A stretch of 64,000 bases of DNA from Planctomycetota bacterium (GTDB lineage: Bacteria > Planctomycetota > GCA-002687715 > CAIWVZ01), in the NCBI GenBank assembly GCA_044222185.1, contig JBGANV010000005.1, forward strand, positions 64,001 to 128,000, given 5' to 3'. Shown here in pieces: positions 22,118-36,317 of this stretch (the first letter of the stretch is position 1; the number at the start of each line of letters is the position of its first letter). The position numbers and the translations under genes are program-made. The notes beneath the pieces were generated by a model. The model had not been told where the DNA came from and did no database searches. It saw only the letters and a list, made by a program, of their open reading frames with translations.

Positions 22118-24253
22118 CTACCTGCCACCGGACTCACGCTTGACCCGCAGATACTCCGCCTCCGCTGCCCGGTAGCGATCCGAGATACCCTGGTCGATGG
22201 GCCGCGCGGGCGGGATGTGAGCGCCGATCGCACCTGCCATCCGAGCCATGCGGTCGGCGTAATCACGGTCGCGCACATACCGTCGACTCTCCGCGTCATA
22301 CGCCGCCTTCGCCGCGAGGTAGTCAGCTTCTGCGGCACGAAGCCTGGCGTCCGCTCCGGGGTCGATGGCTCCAGCTGGACGTCCGCCACCAGACGACGAG
22401 GCCATCGGCCCTACCTCGACGAGCTCGACGAAGAAAACCAGCAGGGCATTGGGCGGGATTCGTGGAGGGGCGCCCGCGGCCCCATACCCGAGATTCGCAG
22501 GAATCACGAAGCGTGCCTTCGACCCCGCCTTGAGGAGTTGCAGCCCTTCAGACAGCCCCGAAATCACCTCCCCAAGACCGAACGTCGCCGGCTTGCCACG
22601 CGAATACGAAGAGTCGAACAGCGTCCCATCCTCGAACCAGCCCGAGTAGTTCACGACGACACGATCAGTCTTCGTCGGCGAGGCGCCGGTGCCGTCGGTG
22701 AGAATGACATATCTCAGGCCGCTTTCAGTCGTCCTCAAACTCATGGTGGCGGGCTCGACGAACTGCGTCGGACTGGGCAGCCTCTTCGCCACGACGGCGG
22801 GGCCCAGGTCCATCTGCGGAGTCACGGGTTTCGTGTGAGTCTCGACGAATTGCACACCGGCCGCCACCGCGACGAGCTTGTTGATCTCTGTGCACTCCGC
22901 CGTCGAAACGGCGAATTCAGCCAATGGAACACCCCCGGCCAGGCGCCCTTGCGCGTCGAAGACAACCGCCATCGTCGCCTTGCCGGCGTGGGCCTTCGCC
23001 GATGGAAACATCTCCTCGAATGCCCCCTTCTCGTCGATCGCGATCGACCACGGCCACAGCCCGTACTTGCCTTCGATCCACATGTTCTGGTGGCCGCGCC
23101 CGCGGCTCTCGAACACGCCGACGATTCCGACCCGCGTCCCGTTGACATCGGTGACGATGCCCTTGAGTGATGACACCAGCTGTTCCGACCATGGCTTGTC
23201 GGGATTCGCGTAGGCCTGCGAGTGCGAGATCAGATAGGCGATGATGACCTTTCCGCGACAGTCCTCGGCGTGAGGGATGCTCTGGTCGCCAGCGAATTGG
23301 ACGCGCCTGAGCCACTGCCGGAGGCCTGGGGGAACGGCTGGGTTGTCCACAAAAACACCGGAGAGGTCACGAACGATGCGAAAACCCACGCGCTCGTTCG
23401 GCAACTCGACCGCTGCTCGTTGCCCCGATGTCGCAACCGTTGCCGAGACCCCTCTCACGGCTCGCGCACCAACCGACACGTCGCTCGCGATGCCGCCCGC
23501 GAGAGGGTCAACCACCGGGTAGGCGCTGTACCGCTCGAAGAGATCGAGGCAGACCTCCGAGGCGTTCGCAGCCATGTCGAAGATGCCCCACGGGTTTGGC
23601 TTCTTCATCGCCACGGGCCGGACGTCTGCGTGAACCTCCCCTGCCGCGTCAACCTGCTCGAAATCGGCGGCACGAGCGATCTCGTCGCCCCAGTACCACC
23701 TCGTCGTCGTGCCCGCGCGGCAGGCGTACTCCCACTCGGCCTCCGTTGGCAGGCGATACTGGAACGTCCGTTCTTTCTGATTGACCCACCGAACGAACTT
23801 CTGGATGGCGTCCAGTGAGACCCGCGTCATCGGCGCTTGCTCCCCTGCCTGGAACGCCAGCTCTATGTCGTCCGTGAGCGCGATGCTCTCGTCCTCGCGC
23901 ATGAACTGCTTCCACTGGGCAACCGTCACTTCCGTCACGCCAAACAAGAGTTCGCCGCTGATCGTCACGTCGTGAACAGGGAGCTCGGAATCGTCTGGGG
24001 CTGGCATTCCGCCCGCCGGCGGTGGCGGCGCGGCTTGGCCGAGCGCCTCAGCGCGGCGTTTGCGTTCCAGATACGTTTGGAACTCCGCCGGACTCGGTCC
24101 AGGGGTGCCCATGCGAAACTTGCCGGGCACGACTCGCACGAACCGCATTCCGACGGAATTGGTCACCACATCGGACGGCTTGTCCTGAGAAATCACCGGA
24201 CTTGCCGACAGCAGAAGGCACAAAGCGACACCTTTGACGATTGCGTTGCTCAT
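22118..24253 (-). CDS. Secreted fusion: FGE-sulfatase (SUMF1-like) domain + CxxC-less thioredoxin-like domain + FKBP-type PPIase
   Basis: Signal peptide; TNSVGMRF, FRMG, TEVT, RLPTEAEWEYACRAG, PNPWG, VGFR; RGKVIIAY...WSIAIDEKG...VFDAQGRL; SGLRY, VNYSGW, GTLFDSS, IPANLGYG, IPPNALLVFFVEL. Confidence 0.85.
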   Translation of the reverse strand: MSNAIVKGVALCLLLSASPVISQDKPSDVVTNSVGMRFVRVVPGKFRMGTPGPSPAEFQTYLERKRRAEALGQAAPPPPAGGMPAPDDSELPVHDVTISGELLFGVTEVTVAQWKQFMREDESIALTDDIELAFQAGEQAPMTRVSLDAIQKFVRWVNQKERTFQYRLPTEAEWEYACRAGTTTRWYWGDEIARAADFEQVDAAGEVHADVRPVAMKKPNPWGIFDMAANASEVCLDLFERYSAYPVVDPLAGGIASDVSVGARAVRGVSATVATSGQRAAVELPNERVGFRIVRDLSGVFVDNPAVPPGLRQWLRRVQFAGDQSIPHAEDCRGKVIIAYLISHSQAYANPDKPWSEQLVSSLKGIVTDVNGTRVGIVGVFESRGRGHQNMWIEGKYGLWPWSIAIDEKGAFEEMFPSAKAHAGKATMAVVFDAQGRLAGGVPLAEFAVSTAECTEINKLVAVAAGVQFVETHTKPVTPQMDLGPAVVAKRLPSPTQFVEPATMSLRTTESGLRYVILTDGTGASPTKTDRVVVNYSGWFEDGTLFDSSYSRGKPATFGLGEVISGLSEGLQLLKAGSKARFVIPANLGYGAAGAPPRIPPNALLVFFVELVEVGPMASSSGGGRPAGAIDPGADARLRAAEADYLAAKAAYDAESRRYVRDRDYADRMARMAGAIGAHIPPARPIDQGISDRYRAAEAEYLRVKRESGGR

Positions 24254-24682
24254 CTCGCGCTCCACTGGGTTCGGCTGAGGGGTCGTGAGCCCTGCAACTC
24301 CGCTCTGGTTGCCGCGCTCACGTCTGCCGACCTGCACCGTGCCGATTGACCTGCGACCTGACGGGGGTGGCACGACGCCGGCCCTTCGAGGTCGAACGGG
24401 GCGGATGCGGAGTCCGTCGACATCCACGCACCACCGTCCAAGATCCCAGTGACGTTGGTTGGGCACTTTTTTTGTCCGCCCGAGGAACCCCAACCCTCAG
24501 CCAGGCTCCAACGCGTCCCGGTCCTGCGGTCCTGTACCAGTTGCGCGTCCCAGCTGGCTGCTCGACTCAAAAAGCGAAGCCTCTCGAACCACTGGGGGGT
24601 GTCGATCCCGCCGTGAACCCCTCGCGGCAGGTCGTCGAGCAGGGGATGGATCCCCTGCAAGAAGACAAGAAAGGTCTCAATC

Positions 24683-25453
24683 ATGAAAGCGCTCCGCCTC
24701 CTCCTCTTGACCGTGACGATCGCCGCGCCTGCGCTCTGCCAGGCGAAGGTGATGGGAACCGTACAGTCGTTCGGAAACAGCTGGGCTGGCGTCGACGCCA
24801 TCACCGGGATCAGCTGTGCCGGGTGGCCAACTCGCGTCGACGACAACTGCAATGGCCAGCATCAGGCGCACATCCTGAAGCACGACGTCACACTCGCCAC
24901 GATGGACTTCCCTGCGACGTCGTTCGGCGGCGGGAACGCACACCCGCTCGTGAAGGCCCGCACGACCACCGTCTTCACTGCGTCCTACGGCGCAGCTGGT
25001 GGCCAGATGACCATTCAGCCCACCTACACGGAGTTCAATGGCTGGAATTCCGAGACGATCTCGGTCGGTCCATTCGATGTACAGGCGCACGCCGGCGTCG
25101 GCGTCGGCAGCCAGGGCTGGGGAACCTGGGCATTCGGACAGCAGCCCCGGCGTGCCAATGCCGAGACCCACTTCGCCCAGAATTGCGTGGCGACGGGGCG
25201 TGTCACAGTGTCGCTTCTGTTCGGCGCTGCGAGTGCGAGCGTCACGGCTGACGTCAACCTCCTAAACCGGGCGGCACATCTGTCGACTGGCAACACAGCC
25301 CTCGCCGGGCTGCCGCAAGCCCACGCGAACGTGGTCTTCGACACATGGCAGCTCCTGCTGAAGCTGAAAGTCCAACTCCTGTGGGGACTCATCGATTACA
25401 AGCGGACGTTGGTCAATGAGTCGGGTGGGCACACCGAGATCACGGGATTCTGA
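24683..25453 (+). CDS. Secreted beta-strand-rich hypothetical protein
   Basis: Signal peptide MKALRLLLLTVTIAAPALC; RBS aagaaagg; alternating hydrophobic pattern. Confidence 0.8.
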   Translation: MKALRLLLLTVTIAAPALCQAKVMGTVQSFGNSWAGVDAITGISCAGWPTRVDDNCNGQHQAHILKHDVTLATMDFPATSFGGGNAHPLVKARTTTVFTASYGAAGGQMTIQPTYTEFNGWNSETISVGPFDVQAHAGVGVGSQGWGTWAFGQQPRRANAETHFAQNCVATGRVTVSLLFGAASASVTADVNLLNRAAHLSTGNTALAGLPQAHANVVFDTWQLLLKLKVQLLWGLIDYKRTLVNESGGHTEITGF

Positions 25454-25476
25454 GGAACACCGAGGAAGCTCGTCGT

Positions 25477-25512
25477 GCAAGGCGGCCGCCGCGAAAGCTG
25501 CGGCTGCCTTGC
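25477..25512 (+). terminator. GNRA-loop hairpin (terminator or mRNA stabiliser) after the 24683 gene
   Basis: gcaaggcggccgccgc-gaaa-gctgcggctgccttgc, a 16-bp stem with one mismatch and one G-U pair, then a pyrimidine-rich tract. Confidence 0.6.
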
Positions 25513-25713
25513 TTCGTCTTCAGGCCAGGGAATACCCGACCGAGCGGCACGTGTATCCCGTGCGCCATGCGTCCGCACAGAATGCACGCACAGCTCACGC
25601 CGAGGGGTCAAAAACTCGGGGCTCGAGACCACTGGACCCATGTGGCCGATCACCGCCCGCGACAGACCTCCCATTCCCTGCGGGCCTGCGGACGAGCCGC
25701 TGAGGATCAATCC

Positions 25714-27624
25714 ATGACCAAGTCCAGAATCTCCATCGGCGTCGCCGCCGCGACCGCCGGGCTCATCTGTGCCGTTGCCCTGTTCGACTCCACCCTTGTG
25801 CGTCGTGCTCTCGCAGGGGGCGATCGACCGATGGACCTCTCCATCGTCCCATCGGCGAATGTTCGGGCACCTTCGCTGCTGGCCTCGCCGTTCATCGACC
25901 CACGCGATTCCTGGCACGCCACACCCGGTGACCAATTCGCCTTCCAAACCGATGCGGAGTGTGACGTCGATCTGGACCCCGCGGAATTCGGGGGCCGTGA
26001 GGCGAGCGCAACGAAGCCGTCGACGCAGTCCATGACCCTGAAGCTGGCGGGGTCGATGACCGCCACCGTGATCGACGCCGTCGGGGATCAAGTCGCTGTC
26101 GCAGTATCCATCGAACTCGATGCAACCGTCGGCGGCGAGAACCCTGGATCGCGCCACCTGACGGGAGACTCGATTGTCACGCTCGAGGCCGGGCGAATCC
26201 TCCGTCTCGGGTTCCGCGAGGGCGCGAGCCCGGTCAGCCGCCGGCTGCTGCGTTGGATCCTGGCCGGCACGCACCAGTTCATCGCACCCGGCGAAGATCG
26301 CCCGACTGCGACAACTGATCACCTGGGAGATGAGACCGGCTGGTATCGCGCGGAGTACGCGTGGACTCAACCCGCGGCTACCGAGGATCCGGGGATGACA
26401 CTTGTCCGGACAAAGCTCGCCTACGAGACCGGCACCCCACGCGACCGATCGTCGGAGTTCAAGATCCGATCCAGCCACGGCGAGGCACGCTTCTCGCACG
26501 GATGGATCGACGTCGGTTCCGATTCCACGGAACTCACCTGCGTCGTCGGTGGCGCGATCATGCAGACGCGCATCCACACGATCGCGAACCGCACCGCGAT
26601 GCGACGCGTGGACGTCGCCGAGTTCACGTGGGCTCCGGACGTCTGGGAGGATGCGTTCATTCCCGCAGGGCCAGTTGGCGTCGATGACGATGTCCTGTCC
26701 CCCGCCGACGCCGATGCGCGCGTGTCATCGATCATCGACGCGCTGAAGATTCTCGCGGACAAATCTGCGTTGAGCTCGGATGATGCGCTCAAGCTCGCCA
26801 TGGAGCTGGCGAAGATCCTTGCGACGCATCCAGAGATCGTGGACACCGTTCGCACGGGGCTCGATGCGGGTTCGTACGGAGGCGCGGCGAGCATGGTGGC
26901 GTCGGCTCTCGCGGGCGCCGCAGTCAAGGGCTCAACCGCAGCAGCCGACGCGGTCATCGGTCTCCTTTCCAGCCGCCAGGACCTCCGTCAGCCCATGATG
27001 ATGGCCCTGCACGAGGCGACGGGAACGACGGCAGCACGGTTCGCTCCGGTCGTCCTCGAACTCGCCAGGGCAAACGGCGATCCTGCTGTGACCACGGCTG
27101 CGTCGCTGCTGGCTGCCACGCTGTACTCGCGGCTCTCGGACGAAGCCGCGCGCGCGCCGATCCGGCAACTGATCGACAGCGGCCTGTCGAGTGTCGACGA
27201 CGCGCGGCGAGAGATGTTCTTGTATGCCGTCGGCAACACGAGCGATCCGGTCATGCGGTCACGTGCCTACGCGATGATCGACGACGGAAATCCAGGGATC
27301 CGCCTTGCCGTCGCGGACGTCGCAACCGGAAACGATGACGGCGGCGCCACATTGCTCAAGCTCGTCGATGACGCTGACCCCATGGTCGCAGCACGCGCGA
27401 TTCGCGGCCTCGGAGCGATGCCGAACAACCCGGACGCGGTACGCCGCCTCCTCGACATCGCACTCGATCCGACCGGTCACGCAGACCCGGAGAGGCTCGC
27501 CGCCCTCCAAGGGCTCGTTCGCTCGCGGCGGGAGGCATCGGTCGTCGAGGGGCTGCGGACAGTCGCGGCCGCCGATCCCAATCCCCAACTCAAGGCGCTC
27601 GCAGCCTCACTCGTGACCAAGTGA
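25714..27624 (+). CDS. Exported protein: N-terminal beta domain + HEAT-like helical domain, resembling Vitellogenin_N/MTP large lipid transfer module
   Basis: N-terminal signal/TM; PGDQFAF, GRILRLGF...LLRWILAGTHQF, DETGWYRAEY, LVRTKLAY, LYAVGNTS, then HEAT repeats. Confidence 0.7.
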   Translation: MTKSRISIGVAAATAGLICAVALFDSTLVRRALAGGDRPMDLSIVPSANVRAPSLLASPFIDPRDSWHATPGDQFAFQTDAECDVDLDPAEFGGREASATKPSTQSMTLKLAGSMTATVIDAVGDQVAVAVSIELDATVGGENPGSRHLTGDSIVTLEAGRILRLGFREGASPVSRRLLRWILAGTHQFIAPGEDRPTATTDHLGDETGWYRAEYAWTQPAATEDPGMTLVRTKLAYETGTPRDRSSEFKIRSSHGEARFSHGWIDVGSDSTELTCVVGGAIMQTRIHTIANRTAMRRVDVAEFTWAPDVWEDAFIPAGPVGVDDDVLSPADADARVSSIIDALKILADKSALSSDDALKLAMELAKILATHPEIVDTVRTGLDAGSYGGAASMVASALAGAAVKGSTAAADAVIGLLSSRQDLRQPMMMALHEATGTTAARFAPVVLELARANGDPAVTTAASLLAATLYSRLSDEAARAPIRQLIDSGLSSVDDARREMFLYAVGNTSDPVMRSRAYAMIDDGNPGIRLAVADVATGNDDGGATLLKLVDDADPMVAARAIRGLGAMPNNPDAVRRLLDIALDPTGHADPERLAALQGLVRSRREASVVEGLRTVAAADPNPQLKALAASLVTK

Positions 27625-27674: not shown

Positions 27675-28334
27675 TCACTCCTCCGCGAAATCGTCGAACA
27701 CGGCGCCGGGCACCGTGGCGCGGAGACGCTTGATCGCATTTTGAAACCGGCCGTAGACCGTGTCGAGCGGCTTGGAGAACTTGGCACCGATTTCGCGAAA
27801 GGTCAGTCCGTGGAAGGTCCGAAGAAGCACGATGTCCCGGTCTTCCGGCGACAACGTCGCCAGCACCTGGCCGATGCGATCGTCGATCTCGCGGCGGGCG
27901 GCCCGCTCGGGGACAGCCGTCGACGTGTCGAGGATCGCCACGTCCGCCGGGACACTGTCCCCATCATCGCCTTGCACGACAGTCAGCTGCGCTGGTGTCG
28001 CCCGTCGGCGCTCGCTGCTCGCCAGGTAGGTGATGGTCGTGCGGAGCCATCGAACGACGACGGGAGTCCATCGCTTCCGGTCATCCTTGAAGTTGTGCTT
28101 CAGGTTCTCGAACGCCTTCGTGAGGATCAGCATGGCTTCCGAGACGAGGTCCTCGGCCGACGTGCTCCCGTCCTTGACCGCAAACCGGCGCGCCCACTGA
28201 ACGGCGAGCGGGTAGAAATGCTCGTAGATGTAGGCGATCGCGCTGCCATCACCGCGACGAACAGCCTCACGAAGATTCATCGATGTTCGACCGCGTGTGG
28301 TCGAGCCATCACCGGTCGGGCCAGCGGGGTCCAT
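27675..28334 (-). CDS. ECF sigma factor, divergent from STK2, no anti-sigma gene
   Basis: AVRRGDGSA, SAEDLVSE, LSPEDRDIVLLRTFHGLTFREIG; alternative start at 28280. Confidence 0.88.
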   Translation of the reverse strand: MDPAGPTGDGSTTRGRTSMNLREAVRRGDGSAIAYIYEHFYPLAVQWARRFAVKDGSTSAEDLVSEAMLILTKAFENLKHNFKDDRKRWTPVVVRWLRTTITYLASSERRRATPAQLTVVQGDDGDSVPADVAILDTSTAVPERAARREIDDRIGQVLATLSPEDRDIVLLRTFHGLTFREIGAKFSKPLDTVYGRFQNAIKRLRATVPGAVFDDFAEE

Positions 28335-28497
28335 CTGCGGGGCGGGGATCATCGTGCGGCCGCCATGCTACTCGGCCGCGGCGAGCGACACAGTGAAGGC
28401 CCGGGTCGGGCAAACCGCAAGACTCCCGCACGTCGTTGACAGGCTCGCGTTCACCCTCGAGAATCCTCGCACTGAACCAGGGAAGACAGGAAGAACA

Positions 28498-31470
28498 GTG
28501 GACGATCAGGAGGAACAGGACGAACGGGCCGATGCGGACTCGCGGGATCCGAGCGTGCGGGAGGCCTTCCTGCTACGCGTCCTGCTCGACATCCACGATG
28601 GAACGGTCAAGCCGCTCTATCGCTACATGCTGGACTTCCCGGGCGACCCGGCAGGGGTGTTCGAGGAGTATCGCGATCTCCTGAACCAGGGCGCGATCTC
28701 CGAGACGGCCGACACGACTCTCGCCTCCGGGTCGGACCCGGCCGAGCACATTGCAAACTACCGCATCATCCGCGAACTCGGACGCGGCGGTCAGGGGACG
28801 GTCTTCCTCGCCGACGATCTGAGGTTGGGCAAGAAGGTCGCGCTGAAGGTTCTCAACCGAGACCACTGGGTGTCCCCTGCCGCCGCCGAACGGTTCCGGC
28901 GAGAGGCGACGATCGCGTCGAGGCTGGAGCACCCCGGCATCTGCCCGGTCTACAACGTCGGCGTCCACAATGGCGTCTCGTTCATCGCCATGCGCTACAT
29001 CGACGGCGAGCCGCTCTCCCACCGGATCGCAACGACGCGGGAGCGAGCGTCCCCGGAGAGCACGATCGTCCTGGTTGAGCTGGACGAGGTCTACACCCCT
29101 GTGACCGAAGTCGCGGCGAACGAACCCGCTCGCAGAGACCCACCCGCGACTCCAGACGACATCGACCGCGTGCTGCTCTTCATCGAACAGGCGGCCCGAG
29201 CCCTCCATGCCGCACACGAGAGTGGTGTCATCCATCGAGACGTGAAGCCGCGGAACATCATGGTGACGAAGGCGGGACATCCAGTGATTCTCGACTTCGG
29301 GCTCGCGCAGGACGTCGAGGGCGATCTCTCGACGCTCACGCAGTCCGGCGAGTTGTTCGGCACACCGTCCTACATGTCACCAGAGCAGTTGCGCCCGGCA
29401 CCGAACAAACTTGACAGGCGCACCGACATCTGGTCGCTCGGCGTCACCCTGTTTGAGTGTTTGTCGCTCAAGATGCCGTTCGACGCACCGACCCGGGACG
29501 GGATCTACCAAGCCATCCAATCGCAGGATCCTCCGGACCTGCGCAGGCTGAATCGGAACGTCTCGCGCGACCTCCGCATCGTCGTTGCGACGGCCCTCGC
29601 GAGGGACCGCGGCCACCGCTACCAGACCGCCGCGGCACTCGCCGAGGACTTGCGCCGAGTGCGGATGCGCGAGCCGATCCGGGCGAAGCCAGTCAGCCCG
29701 ATCGTCCGGCTGCTCCGATGGGGCCAGCGCAATCCCGCTCTTGCGGCCGCGCTGGCAGGACTCTTCGGTGTGCTCGCGGCCGGACTTGCGACCAGTCTGT
29801 ACTTCCTGCGCGCCGCAAGGGCGGCCCTTAACGACTACGACCGCCTTGGTGCGTTGCCGACCCTACAGCGGCTGACGAAGGAAGCAGAGAGTCTCTGGCC
29901 AGCCGAGCCGAGCATGGTGAAGGCGATGGAGCATTGGATCGACCAGGCGGACGCTTTGGTGAAGCAATTGCCGGAGCTTCGGACTGTACTGACTACGCTT
30001 CAAGGTTCGGAAAACGTCGCGCCGTACACTGACGCCGACCGCGAGGCTGACATAGATGCGAATACCGCACAGCATGAGGAGGAGCTTTCTATCGCCCGTC
30101 AACGGCGGGCGCTGCTTGCCGATGCAATTCGCACCGCTGAGTCCCGATCTGTGGGTCAGCCTGCGCCAATCTCGAGCTCGGCTCCAGCCTCAAGACCAAT
30201 TGCACAGCTGGACCCGGGCAAGATCCCAGGAATGCGCGCCCGCATGGCGGATCTCGACGCCGCCATCGCAGGGCTCGACGCCAAGCGCCATGCACGGCGC
30301 ACGTGGAAGTTCACAGGCGACGCGAAGGGGGCTGACCAATTCCGCCACGACACGCTCGCAGACATCGTGCGCGGGCTGAGCACGTTTGCCGAAGAGGACC
30401 CAACGCATGGTGTACTGGCGAACGTGCGTGATCGACTGACATTCGCGAACAAAGTCCGTCACGCGACGATCGACAGTTACCAAGCCAAGTGGCAACTGGC
30501 GAAGGCCGCCATCGCGGCCGAGCCAAAATACCACCGCCTCGAGATAACGGAGCAGCTTGGCTTGATCCCGATCGGGCCCGACCCGCAATCTGGCCTTTGG
30601 GAGTTCGCTCACCTTCGAACGACGACGCCGGGCGTCGATCCGGTCCCGGAACGCGGAGGAGATGGGCGGCTCATCATCACCGAGGACACAGGCATACTCT
30701 TCGTCCTACTACCCGGTGGCACGTTTCGGATGGGGGCGCGGCGAGTCGACCCGAACGACAAGGGGATGCACTCGACCGATCCAAATGTCGACCCGGAAGC
30801 GGCGGAAGGTGAAGCGCCGATCCGAGATGTAAGGCTCGAGCCCTTCTTCCTCTCAAAATACGAGATGACGCAGGGCCAATGGCTACGCGTCGTCGGGCAC
30901 AATCCAAGCATCAACCAGCCCTACAAGATGCTACTTGGCAGGGTCACAGACTTGCGCAACCCCATCGAACAAGTCAGCTGGGACGAATGCGACGTCTGGA
31001 TGTCACGACTATCCCTTCTGCTCCCAACGGAGGCGCAATGGGAGTACGCTGCACGGGGGGGGACAACGACGCCCCGGTGGACGGGAGCCACGGTCGAAGG
31101 CCTTGCGGCGGCGGCGAACGTTGCCGACATGAGCGTGATTCCTCCGGCCACGAACTGGGCACACGAAACCTGGAACGACGGTTTCGCCATCGACGCCCCT
31201 GTCGGCTCGTTCGCGCCGAATGCGTTCGGGCTCCATGATGTGCTGGGAAACGTCTTCGAGTGGTGCCGGGATTGGTGGGCTGGATACGAGGTGCTCCCTC
31301 GGCCAGGTGACGGACTGCGACAGCCGGTCGATCGGCGTATCCGCGTCGGACGCGGCGGCTGTTTCGCGAGCGGCGCTGCGTGGGCGCGTTCGGCGGCGCG
31401 GCTGGGCGACACGCCTGACCGAAAGAGCGACCTCGTCGGTGTACGACCCGCCAGGAGTGTCTTTCCGTAG
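28498..31470 (+). CDS. Membrane Ser/Thr kinase with C-terminal FGE-sulfatase domain (STK2)
   Basis: GRGGQGTVF, HRDVKPRN, DFG, GTPSYMSPE; TM; SKYEMTQGQW, LPTEAQWEYAARGG, PNAFGLHDVLGNVFEWC, RGG, GVRPAR; GTG start 28498. Confidence 0.93.
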   Translation: MDDQEEQDERADADSRDPSVREAFLLRVLLDIHDGTVKPLYRYMLDFPGDPAGVFEEYRDLLNQGAISETADTTLASGSDPAEHIANYRIIRELGRGGQGTVFLADDLRLGKKVALKVLNRDHWVSPAAAERFRREATIASRLEHPGICPVYNVGVHNGVSFIAMRYIDGEPLSHRIATTRERASPESTIVLVELDEVYTPVTEVAANEPARRDPPATPDDIDRVLLFIEQAARALHAAHESGVIHRDVKPRNIMVTKAGHPVILDFGLAQDVEGDLSTLTQSGELFGTPSYMSPEQLRPAPNKLDRRTDIWSLGVTLFECLSLKMPFDAPTRDGIYQAIQSQDPPDLRRLNRNVSRDLRIVVATALARDRGHRYQTAAALAEDLRRVRMREPIRAKPVSPIVRLLRWGQRNPALAAALAGLFGVLAAGLATSLYFLRAARAALNDYDRLGALPTLQRLTKEAESLWPAEPSMVKAMEHWIDQADALVKQLPELRTVLTTLQGSENVAPYTDADREADIDANTAQHEEELSIARQRRALLADAIRTAESRSVGQPAPISSSAPASRPIAQLDPGKIPGMRARMADLDAAIAGLDAKRHARRTWKFTGDAKGADQFRHDTLADIVRGLSTFAEEDPTHGVLANVRDRLTFANKVRHATIDSYQAKWQLAKAAIAAEPKYHRLEITEQLGLIPIGPDPQSGLWEFAHLRTTTPGVDPVPERGGDGRLIITEDTGILFVLLPGGTFRMGARRVDPNDKGMHSTDPNVDPEAAEGEAPIRDVRLEPFFLSKYEMTQGQWLRVVGHNPSINQPYKMLLGRVTDLRNPIEQVSWDECDVWMSRLSLLLPTEAQWEYAARGGTTTPRWTGATVEGLAAAANVADMSVIPPATNWAHETWNDGFAIDAPVGSFAPNAFGLHDVLGNVFEWCRDWWAGYEVLPRPGDGLRQPVDRRIRVGRGGCFASGAAWARSAARLGDTPDRKSDLVGVRPARSVFP

Positions 31471-33383: not shown

Positions 33384-36317
33384 ATGCCTGGAAACAATCA
33401 AGCACTGTCTGGAGCGATGACAATTGTGCACCGCCTTGCGAATCTGCGCATCGGCGTCCGGACGCAACGGCGACCCCACTCGACGGCACTCGCACTCATG
33501 GTCTCGGGGTTGCTGTTGTCGGCATCTGCCGTGGCGCAGTGCCTGGGATCGACATCGGTACTGACGCTCAATCAGGCTCAGGCCATCAGCCCGGCGTCCA
33601 ACGGTGCGCGGTGTTTCACGCTCCAGGCGTACAGTCCGGGGACATGGAACGCGGTCGCCGTCGTCGCGCAGACCGCAAGCTCGCCAACCACCGACTGGGA
33701 TATCGCCGTCGGCCCAGCCACATCAATCATGGGTGGAAGCGCCTGTGATTACGTAATCAGCAACGGCCACTCGTGTGTCCCGCAGACCGTGGACGGCGTT
33801 CTCAGCCGATTTGCAGGTGCTGCTGGCGGCTATGCGCGTCACGTTCACTCCGGTACGTCGCTGACCCTTGGGATGACCAGCTCGCTCACCTGGAGCGGGC
33901 TGGGATCGGGAGGCTCCGCCGCTGGTCAGACAATCCTGCGACTGTTCGAGTTCGACGTCACCCAGGTCGGTCTGTACACGGTGACGATGGGCTCGACGGC
34001 GCCTCTCCGTTGGAGGTTGCACGTGCCTGCGACGAGTGCAGCATGGCAGAGTCGAGACACCGCACACTCCTCCGGAAGCACGGTTACGAACCCGGTCACG
34101 GTGACTCTGGGAACGCTGGGACGGCACGTGATCGCCGTGTTTCAGGACCGTCCGGCAGCGTCGCAGTCGAATGCGGCCTACACTCTCCGCGTCGACCTCG
34201 CCGGATTCATGCCAACGACAGCCACGGGGGTAACGCCCTCGACGAGCACCGCCGGTGCGCCCGACCAGACAATTGTGGTCGCTGGGACCGGGTTTGTCTC
34301 GGGCACGTACCTCGAGTTCAGCATGGGCTCCGCAAGCCTCACCATCGCCGCGACATGTCTGGACCCGATGCACCTCTTGGCGGTGATTCCGGGATCGTCT
34401 CTCGGGACCGCAGGATATGCACTCATCCGCACCGTGAACCCCGGAACGCAGCCCTCAGCATGGCTGTGGCTCACGATCAACAACCCGCCGCCGGTCTTGG
34501 AGGCGATCACGCCGTCGTCTGTAGCGGTCGGCTTTTCGGCCGTGACAGTTCAGCTCACGGGCACCGGTTTCTTGCCCGGTTCGCTCGTTGCGGTCGACGG
34601 CATGCTGCGGCCGAGCGCCTACGTAAGTCCGACGCGGATCGATGTTGTGGTCCCAGCCGCCGTTCGGACCTACGGGCATGTCGTTCCGATCACCGTTTCC
34701 AACCTGGCGCCAGGCGGGGGCGAGAGCGTGGAACTCGACTTCACCGTCCTGAACGCTGCGCCTCAGATCGCGAGCGCGGTGCCGACATGGCTGGTCGCGG
34801 GCTCGAACGATACCTGGGTAACGTTGTTTGGCTGCGGACTCCTCTACGGATCGTCCGTGACCTGTGACGCATCGCCTCGGACCGCCGACTTCATTTCGCT
34901 GAATCAGATGAGCGTGCTACTCATGGCGGCCGACCTGCAAACTGCCGGCGTCAGGACGCTCGCCATCTCAACCCCGGGACCGGGTGGCGGCTCGGCCACC
35001 ATCAACCTCGAAGTTCGCAACCCGCTCCCGAACCCAACCAGCGTCACCCCCTCCTGCGTCACTGCCACCGGGACCGCGACCACCGTGACCGTCAACGGCG
35101 TGGGTTTCGTGCCGACAACCGCAGTCCGCGTGAATGGCCAGCTCGTCCCTTCGGCGATCACGAGCACCGGCCTCCAAGTCACGCTCCCGGGCGCGATGAC
35201 TGGCACCGTCGGAGCGTTGTGGATCGAAGCGACGAATCCGGGCCCGGGCGGAGGCACGGGGTACGACACGGTGCGCGTGGCGGTCACCGCACAACCCACG
35301 GTTGCGGATGCGTCACCCACGTTTGCAACTGCCGGCGACAACACCGTCGTTGTCATCCTCACCGGCACGAACCTGAGTTTCATGACCGTGGTCGATGCGA
35401 TCGACGCGACGGGTACCCGCCCCCTCTTCACCGAGTATTTGTCTCAGAACACGATCCGAGTCACGATCCCCGGGACGTTGCTCGCCGCAGCGGGTTCGCT
35501 GGGCCTGCAGGCCCGACAGGATTCTCCATTCGATTGCGCGACCTCGCCGTCGAGCCCAATCATGTTCGAGGTCCGGGGGCCGCACATCCTGGCGGTTCAG
35601 CCCGCCGCCCACGTTCCGATTTCGGCAGGCCTCGCACCAGTCGATGTGTACCTGCTTGGCTGGGGCTTCCGTCCGGGCGCCGCCGGGTTCGGCATCGCTC
35701 TCGACAGTACACTCGTCACGACGGCCAACCCCGTTCCGGGGGTCGCGATCATCGATGCCCAGCCGACGTTCGTCCACCTGCTGCTCGATGCGGCGTTCGC
35801 CCGGGCAACGCAGGCCGGCGGGCTCCCGCTCGTCATCCTGAATGGCGCGCTGGCCCCGTCCAACAGCGTTGCAATCGCGCTCGAACCGCAGGGGCTGCAC
35901 TTCAGCAATGGCGGGACCGTCCGAAGCGATCCGGTGGTAGCCCCGGCCGGAGCGACTCGGACCGTCGTGATCGAAGGCGTGCCGCCGGGGCAGCCCTTCA
36001 CGCTCATAGCCCTCGCGAATCCGGCGACAGTCCTCGTCCCCGATCCCCTGAATGCCAGCGCGGCCTTCCAGGTGCGTGCGTTCGGTCCGGCCACCGTGCC
36101 ACTCTGCGACGGACTGGGCGTGTTCGGCCCGCCGACACCGAGTTGCGCTACGACCTCCGGCACCTTCGCGACGCCCCCTGGCGGGGTTTGGATGAGCGCT
36201 GAGATGAGCCTGCCGAATCTACCACCCGGTACCGCGGTCGCGTTCCAGGCGTTGGTTCAGGACCCGCTCGCGCCGCTCGGCGTGCGGCTGACTTGGCCCC
36301 TGGACCTGACCTATTGA
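33384..36317 (+). CDS. Secreted IPT/TIG-repeat protein with C-terminal Pro/Gly-rich domain
   Basis: Signal peptide ending AVAQC; repeated (G)TGF.....V...G / NP.PGGG Ig-like units; true start may be 33417 or 33498. Confidence 0.85.
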   Translation: MPGNNQALSGAMTIVHRLANLRIGVRTQRRPHSTALALMVSGLLLSASAVAQCLGSTSVLTLNQAQAISPASNGARCFTLQAYSPGTWNAVAVVAQTASSPTTDWDIAVGPATSIMGGSACDYVISNGHSCVPQTVDGVLSRFAGAAGGYARHVHSGTSLTLGMTSSLTWSGLGSGGSAAGQTILRLFEFDVTQVGLYTVTMGSTAPLRWRLHVPATSAAWQSRDTAHSSGSTVTNPVTVTLGTLGRHVIAVFQDRPAASQSNAAYTLRVDLAGFMPTTATGVTPSTSTAGAPDQTIVVAGTGFVSGTYLEFSMGSASLTIAATCLDPMHLLAVIPGSSLGTAGYALIRTVNPGTQPSAWLWLTINNPPPVLEAITPSSVAVGFSAVTVQLTGTGFLPGSLVAVDGMLRPSAYVSPTRIDVVVPAAVRTYGHVVPITVSNLAPGGGESVELDFTVLNAAPQIASAVPTWLVAGSNDTWVTLFGCGLLYGSSVTCDASPRTADFISLNQMSVLLMAADLQTAGVRTLAISTPGPGGGSATINLEVRNPLPNPTSVTPSCVTATGTATTVTVNGVGFVPTTAVRVNGQLVPSAITSTGLQVTLPGAMTGTVGALWIEATNPGPGGGTGYDTVRVAVTAQPTVADASPTFATAGDNTVVVILTGTNLSFMTVVDAIDATGTRPLFTEYLSQNTIRVTIPGTLLAAAGSLGLQARQDSPFDCATSPSSPIMFEVRGPHILAVQPAAHVPISAGLAPVDVYLLGWGFRPGAAGFGIALDSTLVTTANPVPGVAIIDAQPTFVHLLLDAAFARATQAGGLPLVILNGALAPSNSVAIALEPQGLHFSNGGTVRSDPVVAPAGATRTVVIEGVPPGQPFTLIALANPATVLVPDPLNASAAFQVRAFGPATVPLCDGLGVFGPPTPSCATTSGTFATPPGGVWMSAEMSLPNLPPGTAVAFQALVQDPLAPLGVRLTWPLDLTY

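Follow-up and report, generated by a model that had tools for sequence, protein, structure and literature searches.

The window analysed here, a 64,000-nucleotide stretch of contig JBGANV010000005.1 from a Planctomycetota bacterium, carries two neighboring genes on the same strand of a region with 65% GC, one at 24683-25453 and the other at 25714-27624, whose products we call P0001 and P0003. Our analysis suggests that P0001 and P0003 make up an exported relative, in two subunits, of the lipid-binding module of animal large lipid transfer proteins (LLTPs), a reading that we consider moderately probable. Two components of it are well supported. P0003 belongs, as a very divergent member, to a bacterial family that shares homology with the N-terminal half of the animal proteins vitellogenin, lipovitellin, MTP and ApoB, and P0001 belongs to an unnamed family that is encoded beside such genes across the phylum. 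The transfer of lipid by this module is suggested by the homology with the animal proteins. An earlier note on this DNA, made by a model from the letters and the open reading frames (ORFs), had proposed a split large-lipid-transfer system at this locus. The homology of the large subunit, the adjacent partner gene and the predicted complex of the two products all favor that proposal, whereas its description as a large lipid transfer system holds only in part; with no cavity sheets in its chain, P0003 is an N-terminal-half LLTP homologue and falls short of a complete LLTP.

The homology of P0003 was traced through its relatives. An exhaustive HMMER search of 1.84 billion representative proteins returned 18 proteins at E<=0.001, eight of which were full-length or long with 24-28% identity, and its matches include P0004 (E 2.2e-21) and P0020. 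The latter matches the Pfam family Vitellogenin_N (PF01347; cut-off 24 bits) at 42.8 bits, in a single stretch that runs from position 84 to position 554 of the 590-position profile and takes in both the barrel and the helices. Using a nine-sequence profile of the beta domain (A2), which was later found to miss divergent copies, we detected the family in 29 of 401 genomes and 24 of 288 genera, in a sample drawn from the window's phylum only. When 19 of the ORFs found with this profile were compared to PF01347, 14 matched at E<=0.01, 12 of them above the cut-off, and five had no match. Four ORFs (L011, L012, L013 and L017) reached the barrel part of the profile, with L012 scoring 85.3 bits over positions 27-526 and L017 scoring 74.1 bits over positions 76-579. 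In the other direction, a beta-domain hidden Markov model (HMM) built from 20 other genomes found only P0003 (residues 67-286, 61.2 bits, E 2.3e-16) among the 35,901 stop-to-stop ORFs of at least 100 amino acids (aa) in its own genome. Three genomes of the survey carry paralogous modules, with four beta-domain matches in G061, three in G225 and two in G111.

Profile comparisons with solved structures point the same way. A 28-sequence full-length family profile (A4) matched lipovitellin (1lsh_A) at E 3.5e-21, with profile positions 161-564 aligned to chain residues 82-507, and MTP (6i7s_G) at E 4.8e-15, with positions 82-563 aligned to residues 24-502, each in one stretch. A 20-sequence alignment restricted to the beta domain (A5) had a lone match in the PDB at E<=10, and this was again lipovitellin 1lsh_A (E 2.8e-4, profile positions 84-173 to chain residues 77-163). 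The nine-sequence A2 profile found nothing relevant in the PDB. The vitellogenin-like motifs quoted in the earlier note proved to lie on conserved columns of the family, in the same block that aligns to lipovitellin 77-163. PGDQFAF of P0003 aligns to the family pattern xYxYxxGDxLxY, GRILRLGF...VSRRLLRWILAGTHQF to GxIxxxxFPxxxxPxxRNxxKxLLxxxQVxLP, DETGWYRAEY to ExDxTGxYxAxY, LVRTKLAY to IxKTKxxY, and LYAVGNTS to LxxLGNxGxP.

Searches that started from single sequences were far less informative. Word-indexed searches of 5.8 billion proteins returned the query itself or generic HEAT proteins only, given that the family is too divergent for them, and the single sequence of P0003 matched designed helical repeats only in the PDB. 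Used as single queries in 40 relatives, P0003 and P0001 gave HEAT-level matches or none. NCBIfam held nothing for P0003 or the partner family beyond sub-threshold HEAT-type rows, and a PF01347 scan of the window's own genome gave one unrelated weak match elsewhere and none at P0003. Public sources name the members of the family HEAT repeat proteins, and PF01347 appears among the precomputed domains of one member.

We modelled P0003 with AlphaFold2 (AF2) from a 10-sequence alignment and obtained a predicted local distance difference test score (pLDDT) of 78 and a predicted template-modelling score (pTM) of 0.49. The model has about 11-12 strands over residues 73-313 with an inner helix at 173-187, followed by helices over 330-635. 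It ends in helical repeats at residue 636, which bears out the view that the chain lacks the C-terminal sheets of the lipid cavity. A structure search against lipovitellin and MTP had been put forward as a check, and in our Foldseek search of the PDB the nine best matches were all LLTPs (E 6.8e-14 to 3.6e-08, alignments of 618-725 columns). MTP 6i7s came first (E 6.8e-14), and lipovitellin (1.8e-12), honey-bee vitellogenin, ApoB100 and MTP 8eoj were also among the top matches, with helical-repeat proteins coming after the LLTPs, from E 1e-6. The structural alignments span residues 68-636 of the model and end at residue 589 of lipovitellin and residue 619 of MTP. [quoted passage not shown] The modelled fold of P0003 fits the description of an N-sheet and a helical arc given in that text.

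The same searches bear on another explanation for P0003, that of a generic HEAT-repeat protein whose beta domain is unrelated, whose likeness to vitellogenin comes from the helices only, and whose upstream gene is an unrelated neighbor. The sole direct Pfam match of P0003 is HEAT_2 (PF13646), at 35.8 bits against a cut-off of 27.7 and over residues 521-601, which lie in the C-terminal arc only. Helical-repeat proteins also dominate the lists of sequence and structure-alignment matches, and PF01347 finds matches in the control genomes of Synechococcus and Methanosarcina, presumed to be helical repeats as well. However, profiles of the beta domain alone recover both P0003 and the N-sheet of lipovitellin, the single-stretch matches to PF01347, lipovitellin and MTP cover the barrel together with the helices, and the neighboring gene encodes a member of the partner family in a conserved position. 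We regard the generic HEAT-repeat explanation as very improbable.

The partner family was defined by clustering the ORFs called around 20 family loci, in flanks of 8 kb to either side. In nine loci, a secreted protein of 300-380 aa is encoded directly 5' of the large gene and on the same strand. The first HMM made from this cluster also found upstream proteins of other sizes elsewhere (E 6e-17 to 3e-7), and P0001 was its next match, at 7.5 bits, when it was run against 190 neighbor ORFs. Against the 35,901 ORFs of the window's own genome, the second-round HMM gave P0001 as the sole match at E<=10 (15.2 bits). The third-round HMM, built from 40 segments of other genomes and none from the window, raised its score to 35.1 bits (E 1.8e-8) in a match that spans model positions 34-278 of 288, with a runner-up at 14.3 bits. 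The family motif F.VGP.PV.V...G.G is present in P0001 as ISVGPFDVQAHAGVGVG. P0001 has no Pfam match at E<=10 and no NCBIfam family, and nine of 10 partners examined had no Pfam family at E<=0.1, the tenth having sub-threshold matches to unrelated families only. A query of the ESM Atlas with a partner relative returned unnamed clusters only.

Variants of the partner gene were seen at several loci. Longer partners, 580-940 aa in size and with additional sequence at the N- or C-terminus that belongs to no Pfam family, occur at L030 (4868-6610, minus strand), L032 (4152-5942, plus strand) and L046 (2186-4996, minus strand). At L074 (4824-9670), a 1271-aa ORF has a C-terminal partner domain and is followed by a 428-aa protein that matches the helical half only, and at L068 (7914-10798) the partner and helical matches overlap in different frames. 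P0001 ends in Phe, and we considered it as an outer-membrane barrel; this candidate was rejected given that its relatives do not share an aromatic C-terminus.

The refutation proposed in the earlier note was that the two genes do not occur together elsewhere, and they do. We examined all 34 A2 matches outside the window's own copy in six frames and found the partner adjacent in 29 of them (29 of the 32 assessable loci); two loci were cut by a contig end (L047 and L060), and three had no partner at E<=1e-3 (L053, L057 and L062). L053 and L057 have weak upstream partner matches (E 0.45 and 1.3), and the partner match at L028 is partial and on the opposite strand. Approached from the partner, 17 loci gave an adjacent beta domain in 10, an adjacent helical-only match in two (L068 and L074), a contig end in two (L071 and L078), and no large gene in three (L063, L066 and L079). 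At the level of genomes, the partner profile was positive in 38 of the 401, of which 26 also carry the large gene and 12 carry the partner only, while three genomes carry the large gene only.

Prediction of the two products as a complex, another check that had been suggested, separated the pair from its controls. We combined residues 60-636 of P0003, using the A4 alignment, with residues 22-256 of P0001, using the partner alignment A3. The interface score ipSAE was 0.88, 0.61 and 0.62 in three runs (median 0.62), compared to 0.00 for the best of three controls. The pLDDT of the partner in these runs was 64, 48 and 55, and at least 30% of contacts agreed. This mark is reached by 58 of 80 solved complexes and two of 110 mismatched pairs, a rough guide for this pair since we used our own alignments. 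The models thus support binding between P0001 and P0003. The confident contacts follow one face of the whole predicted arc, at residues 348-636 of P0003. On P0001, they fall on alternate residues of 38-46, 53-61, 68-70, 75-81 and 85-89, together with 92-101 and 109-120, a pattern expected from a beta sheet lying in the helical arc. The contact face of P0001 in the model is polar, with a mean Kyte-Doolittle value of -1.37 (-1.81 over the family columns), and the opposite face is hydrophobic (+0.84, and +1.17 over the family columns). Docking in the concave face of the arc would parallel the animal proteins, in which the helical subdomain wraps the cavity sheets according to the text available from PMC12214520. 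The earlier note had described the 256-aa protein as secreted and beta-rich. We could read a signal peptide, in agreement with the first term; the second has indirect support only, from the alternating contacts of the complex model, which fit strands.

Several observations weigh against a two-subunit relative of the LLTP module. P0003 does not match PF01347 even at E<=10, and its membership of the family is therefore transitive. With the A2 profile, which misses divergent copies, no homologue turned up in the 22 other genomes sampled from the taxonomic family and order of the window, which leaves the window copy isolated. Whole-model TM-scores to the LLTPs are low (0.25-0.39, with a root-mean-square deviation of about 17-25 Å), which we attribute to a different orientation of the domains in a model with a pTM of 0.49, and many plain helical-repeat proteins reach the same Z, but over residues 325-636 only. 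On the side of the partner, profile A3 matched no chain in the PDB, LLTP sheets included, and profile A7 matched an unrelated methyltransferase at E 0.61 only. P0001 modelled alone from its single sequence had a pLDDT of 40 (48-64 in the complex), which leaves its fold uncertain, and the hydrophobic far face of its predicted sheet would suit the core of a beta-sandwich just as it would a lipid pocket. In addition, the partner gene lies upstream of P0003, opposite to the order expected from simple fission of an LLTP gene.

We considered how the two-subunit module could work. P0003 would supply the N-sheet barrel and the helical arc, its chain ending at the point from which animal LLTPs go on into the C- and A-sheets lining the lipid cavity. 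The partner would dock the polar face of its sheet in the concave face of the arc, with its hydrophobic face pointing away, and the pair could form a hydrophobic pocket able to bind or shuttle lipid, or some other hydrophobic compound, within the periplasm. The fullest version of this proposal is a split bacterial lipoprotein lipid-binding module, in which the barrel-plus-arc and sheet subunits form a hydrophobic pocket in which lipid would cross the large periplasm of the Planctomycetota, and this version we hold only tentatively. An alternative proposal is that the pair is an envelope-binding or defence factor that binds lipopolysaccharide or surface glycolipids, its own or those of competitors, rather than shuttling membrane lipid. 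Both proteins have export signals, vitellogenin is reported to bind lipopolysaccharide and lipoteichoic acid in work cited in the accessible part of PMC12214520, and several paralogous modules in one genome (four in G061 and three in G225) are often seen in diversifying recognition systems. Against this, no secretion-system, toxin or immunity genes are conserved next to the module in the 21 clustered loci, and we consider a role in envelope binding or defence rather improbable.

The features of the locus are collected in Table 1. Both ORFs called in the earlier note are present and appear to be real genes under constraint, given their codon-position GC and the mostly silent changes between strains. 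GC at codon positions 1, 2 and 3 is 0.61, 0.50 and 0.80 for the partner gene and 0.69, 0.53 and 0.77 for the large gene, and third-position GC is similar in the adjacent sigma factor (0.79) and kinase (0.76) genes. In a related strain from other metagenomes, 19 of the 25 listed changes in the first ORF are synonymous and 20 of the 25 fall at third positions, and six of the eight listed changes in the second ORF are synonymous; 43 more differences exist beyond those listed. The start of P0003 at 25714 is preceded by GAGGA 8 nucleotides (nt) 5' of its ATG, and homologues align from the same Met. A longer ORF from 25567 was rejected on these grounds and because the third-position GC of 25567-25713 is only 0.65, and an antisense ORF at 25396-26577 was rejected because its codon-position GC lacks a coding pattern. 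The leader of P0003 may act either as signal peptide or as signal anchor. Its homologues likewise begin with a hydrophobic segment, and AF2 places a low-confidence helix at residues 2-23. The partner-family relatives of P0001 also open with a hydrophobic leader.

Table 1. Features of the module and its immediate neighbors, in window coordinates
Feature	Coordinates	Strand	Basis or remark
Partner gene P0001, 256 aa, secreted	24683..25453	+	divergent member of unnamed family
P0001 signal peptide MKALRLLLLTVTIAAPALCQA	24683..24745	+	read from sequence; probable cut after CQA
GC-rich intergenic hairpin, GAAA loop, then TTCGTCTTC	25477..25512	+	folding energy
Vitellogenin_N-like gene P0003, 636 aa, exported	25714..27624	+	profile homology and model
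P0003 N-terminal hydrophobic segment, residues about 6-24, AVA at 19-21	25714..25800	+	read from sequence
P0003 beta domain, residues 67-313 (~245 residues)	25912..26652	+	counterpart of LLTP N-sheet
P0003 helical repeat arc, residues 330-636	26701..27621	+	counterpart of LLTP helical subdomain; predicted partner-docking face
Extracytoplasmic function (ECF)-type sigma factor gene	27675..28352	-	Pfam Sigma70_r2, Sigma70_r4, Sigma70_ECF; context only
Ser/Thr kinase with C-terminal FGE-sulfatase	28297..31470	+	Pfam Pkinase 155-449, FGE-sulfatase 802-1053; context only

A 260-nt gap separates the partner gene from the P0003 gene downstream on the same strand, and the strong GNRA hairpin reported within it was reproduced. 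It has a 13-bp stem, a 2-bp inner stem and a GAAA loop, and its folding energy of -32.3 kcal/mol (z -4.63) was matched by none of 200 shuffles. Rfam has no family for the hairpin or the intergenic region. A scan for promoter and terminator patterns did not call the hairpin a terminator, since the weak T tract falls short of the pattern, and it placed no sigma-70-type promoter ahead of the two module genes. Within the hairpin, the related strain lists only 25480 A>G, which keeps the pair as G-U, compared to six substitutions and two indels in the 23 nt just before it (25454-25476), with up to three differences of that contig unlisted. The smaller number of changes inside the hairpin hints at constraint on it, and it is a possible terminator, attenuator or stabiliser; the excess of the small subunit put forward in the earlier note would depend on such a role. 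A related-strain contig (run X5) matches the window up to 25514, just past the hairpin, and then runs on for 170 nt that do not resemble it, so that strains differ in the spacer preceding the large gene.

The genes around the module raise a further alternative, that the large subunit is homologous to LLTPs with no role in lipid handling and acts instead as a periplasmic sensor or scaffold feeding a kinase or an ECF sigma factor, with the barrel and arc recognising a protein or an envelope polymer. Of 21 loci, 13 have a kinase gene no more than 8 kb away. At L029, a kinase gene lies inside the operon, between partner and large gene, and at L032, L038 and L047 a kinase follows the module on the same strand. 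L038 repeats the architecture of the window, with a kinase and FGE-sulfatase downstream of the module, at L030 the module is separated from a kinase by a Sigma70_r2 gene, and an FHA protein and a kinase are encoded upstream of the module at L033 and L034. The genomes from which L029 and L038 come (G212 and G100) have only 47 and 54 kinase matches. However, the window's own genome (G000) is unusually kinase-rich, with 148 Pkinase matches over its 7.08 Mb, and G175, G111 and G087 gave at least 120 to 139. With kinases this dense, chance alone would put one within 16 kb in roughly one-quarter to one-half of loci, and 13 of 21 is not clearly above chance. Eight of the 21 loci have no nearby kinase, and the sigma factor gene of the window is convergent with the module and hence not co-transcribed with it. 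The linkage between module and kinase is suggestive only, and we judge the sensor or scaffold role unlikely.

Other observations concern the neighboring genes themselves. At L033 (4213-6162, minus strand) and L034 (4317-6247, minus strand), both from low-GC genomes, a kinase and an FHA + DUF4388 protein are encoded divergently upstream of the module. The Pfam matches of the genes upstream of the window's module are FGE-sulfatase with an FKBP protein, a second kinase and a polyphosphate kinase. The first of these is a 791-aa ORF (22118-24493, minus strand), divergent from the partner gene, with FGE-sulfatase at residues 164-375 and FKBP-type prolyl isomerase at 605-692. Downstream, a 977-aa ORF (33384-36317, plus strand) has five NCBIfam 'choice-of-anchor Z' PGGG repeats (NF058597, E 1.1e-61) and no Pfam match. 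The kinase ORF listed from 28297 starts inside the 5' end of the divergent sigma factor gene, its kinase domain begins only at residue 155, and the plus strand has a match to a sigma-70-like promoter (TTGACA-17-GAGAAT) at 28436-28464; from the overlap and the promoter, the true kinase start is probably later than 28297. Many kinases and FGE-sulfatase domains fit a member of the Planctomycetota.

Returning to the two-subunit relative of the LLTP module, we compared it to known systems. Lipovitellin and vitellogenin (1lsh; honey-bee vitellogenin 9enr and 9ens) have the same arrangement, an N-sheet-like beta domain around one helix and then a helical arc, and they have motifs in common with the bacterial family (G.I...P....N.v.g.L..Q, E..G.c..Y, KTK and LGN.G.P). 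Unlike vitellogenin, the P0003 chain has no C-sheet, A-sheet, vWD or phosvitin parts and ends at residue 636; it is bacterial, has an N-terminal export segment, and has a separate partner predicted at the place of the sheets. The MTP large subunit with PDI (6i7s and 8eoj) is likewise a heterodimer with a second, separately encoded protein, and MTP is the best Foldseek match of P0003. In MTP, however, the large subunit retains C-terminal sheets that bind lipid, and it pairs with PDI, a protein of the thioredoxin fold, whereas P0001, which is free of Pfam matches, belongs to a different, unnamed family. ApoB100 (beta-alpha-1 region; 9bd1, 9bd8 and 9ea7) differs in running on for thousands of residues of lipid-wrapping sheets. 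The membrane-coat-like proteins of Planctomycetes, which consist of a beta-propeller and an alpha-solenoid, are also eukaryote-like proteins with a beta domain followed by a helical solenoid, but their beta domain is a propeller and not an LLTP N-sheet. Bacterial lipid-transfer proteins such as the TULIP-like P47, OrfX2 and YceB and the Chorein-N proteins TamB and AsmA (PMC6791001) resemble the module in acting at the envelope and in their remote homology to eukaryotic lipid-transfer proteins. Their folds differ from that of P0003, and the word 'vitellogenin' occurs zero times in the accessible text of PMC6791001. In a full-text literature search, we found no description of a bacterial member of the LLTP superfamily in the text that could be retrieved. 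One candidate report, PMC1403754, was rejected given that, in its available part, it concerns a vitellogenin-receptor-like repeat.

In summary, at least 29 of the 401 genomes sampled from one bacterial phylum encode the N-terminal half of the LLTP module, in every case lacking the cavity sheets and nearly always with a gene of the one secreted partner family alongside. LLTPs (vitellogenin, ApoB, MTP and apolipophorin) have been described as animal proteins whose emergence is tied to multicellularity, in the text available from PMC12214520 and PMC13540394. If the split-module version of our reading is correct, the fold of vitellogenin, ApoB and MTP would be older than animals or would have been exchanged with them, and would not have arisen with multicellularity. 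The analysis identifies two families that are now labelled 'HEAT repeat protein' or are unnamed, with no entry in Pfam or NCBIfam, and it suggests a route of envelope lipid handling that is undescribed in bacteria. The pair offers a system in which to ask about the origin of the LLTP fold and whether two polypeptides can build a lipid pocket. Even if its function should turn out to be unrelated to lipid, the module would still be a clear case of a fold regarded as animal that occurs in bacteria.

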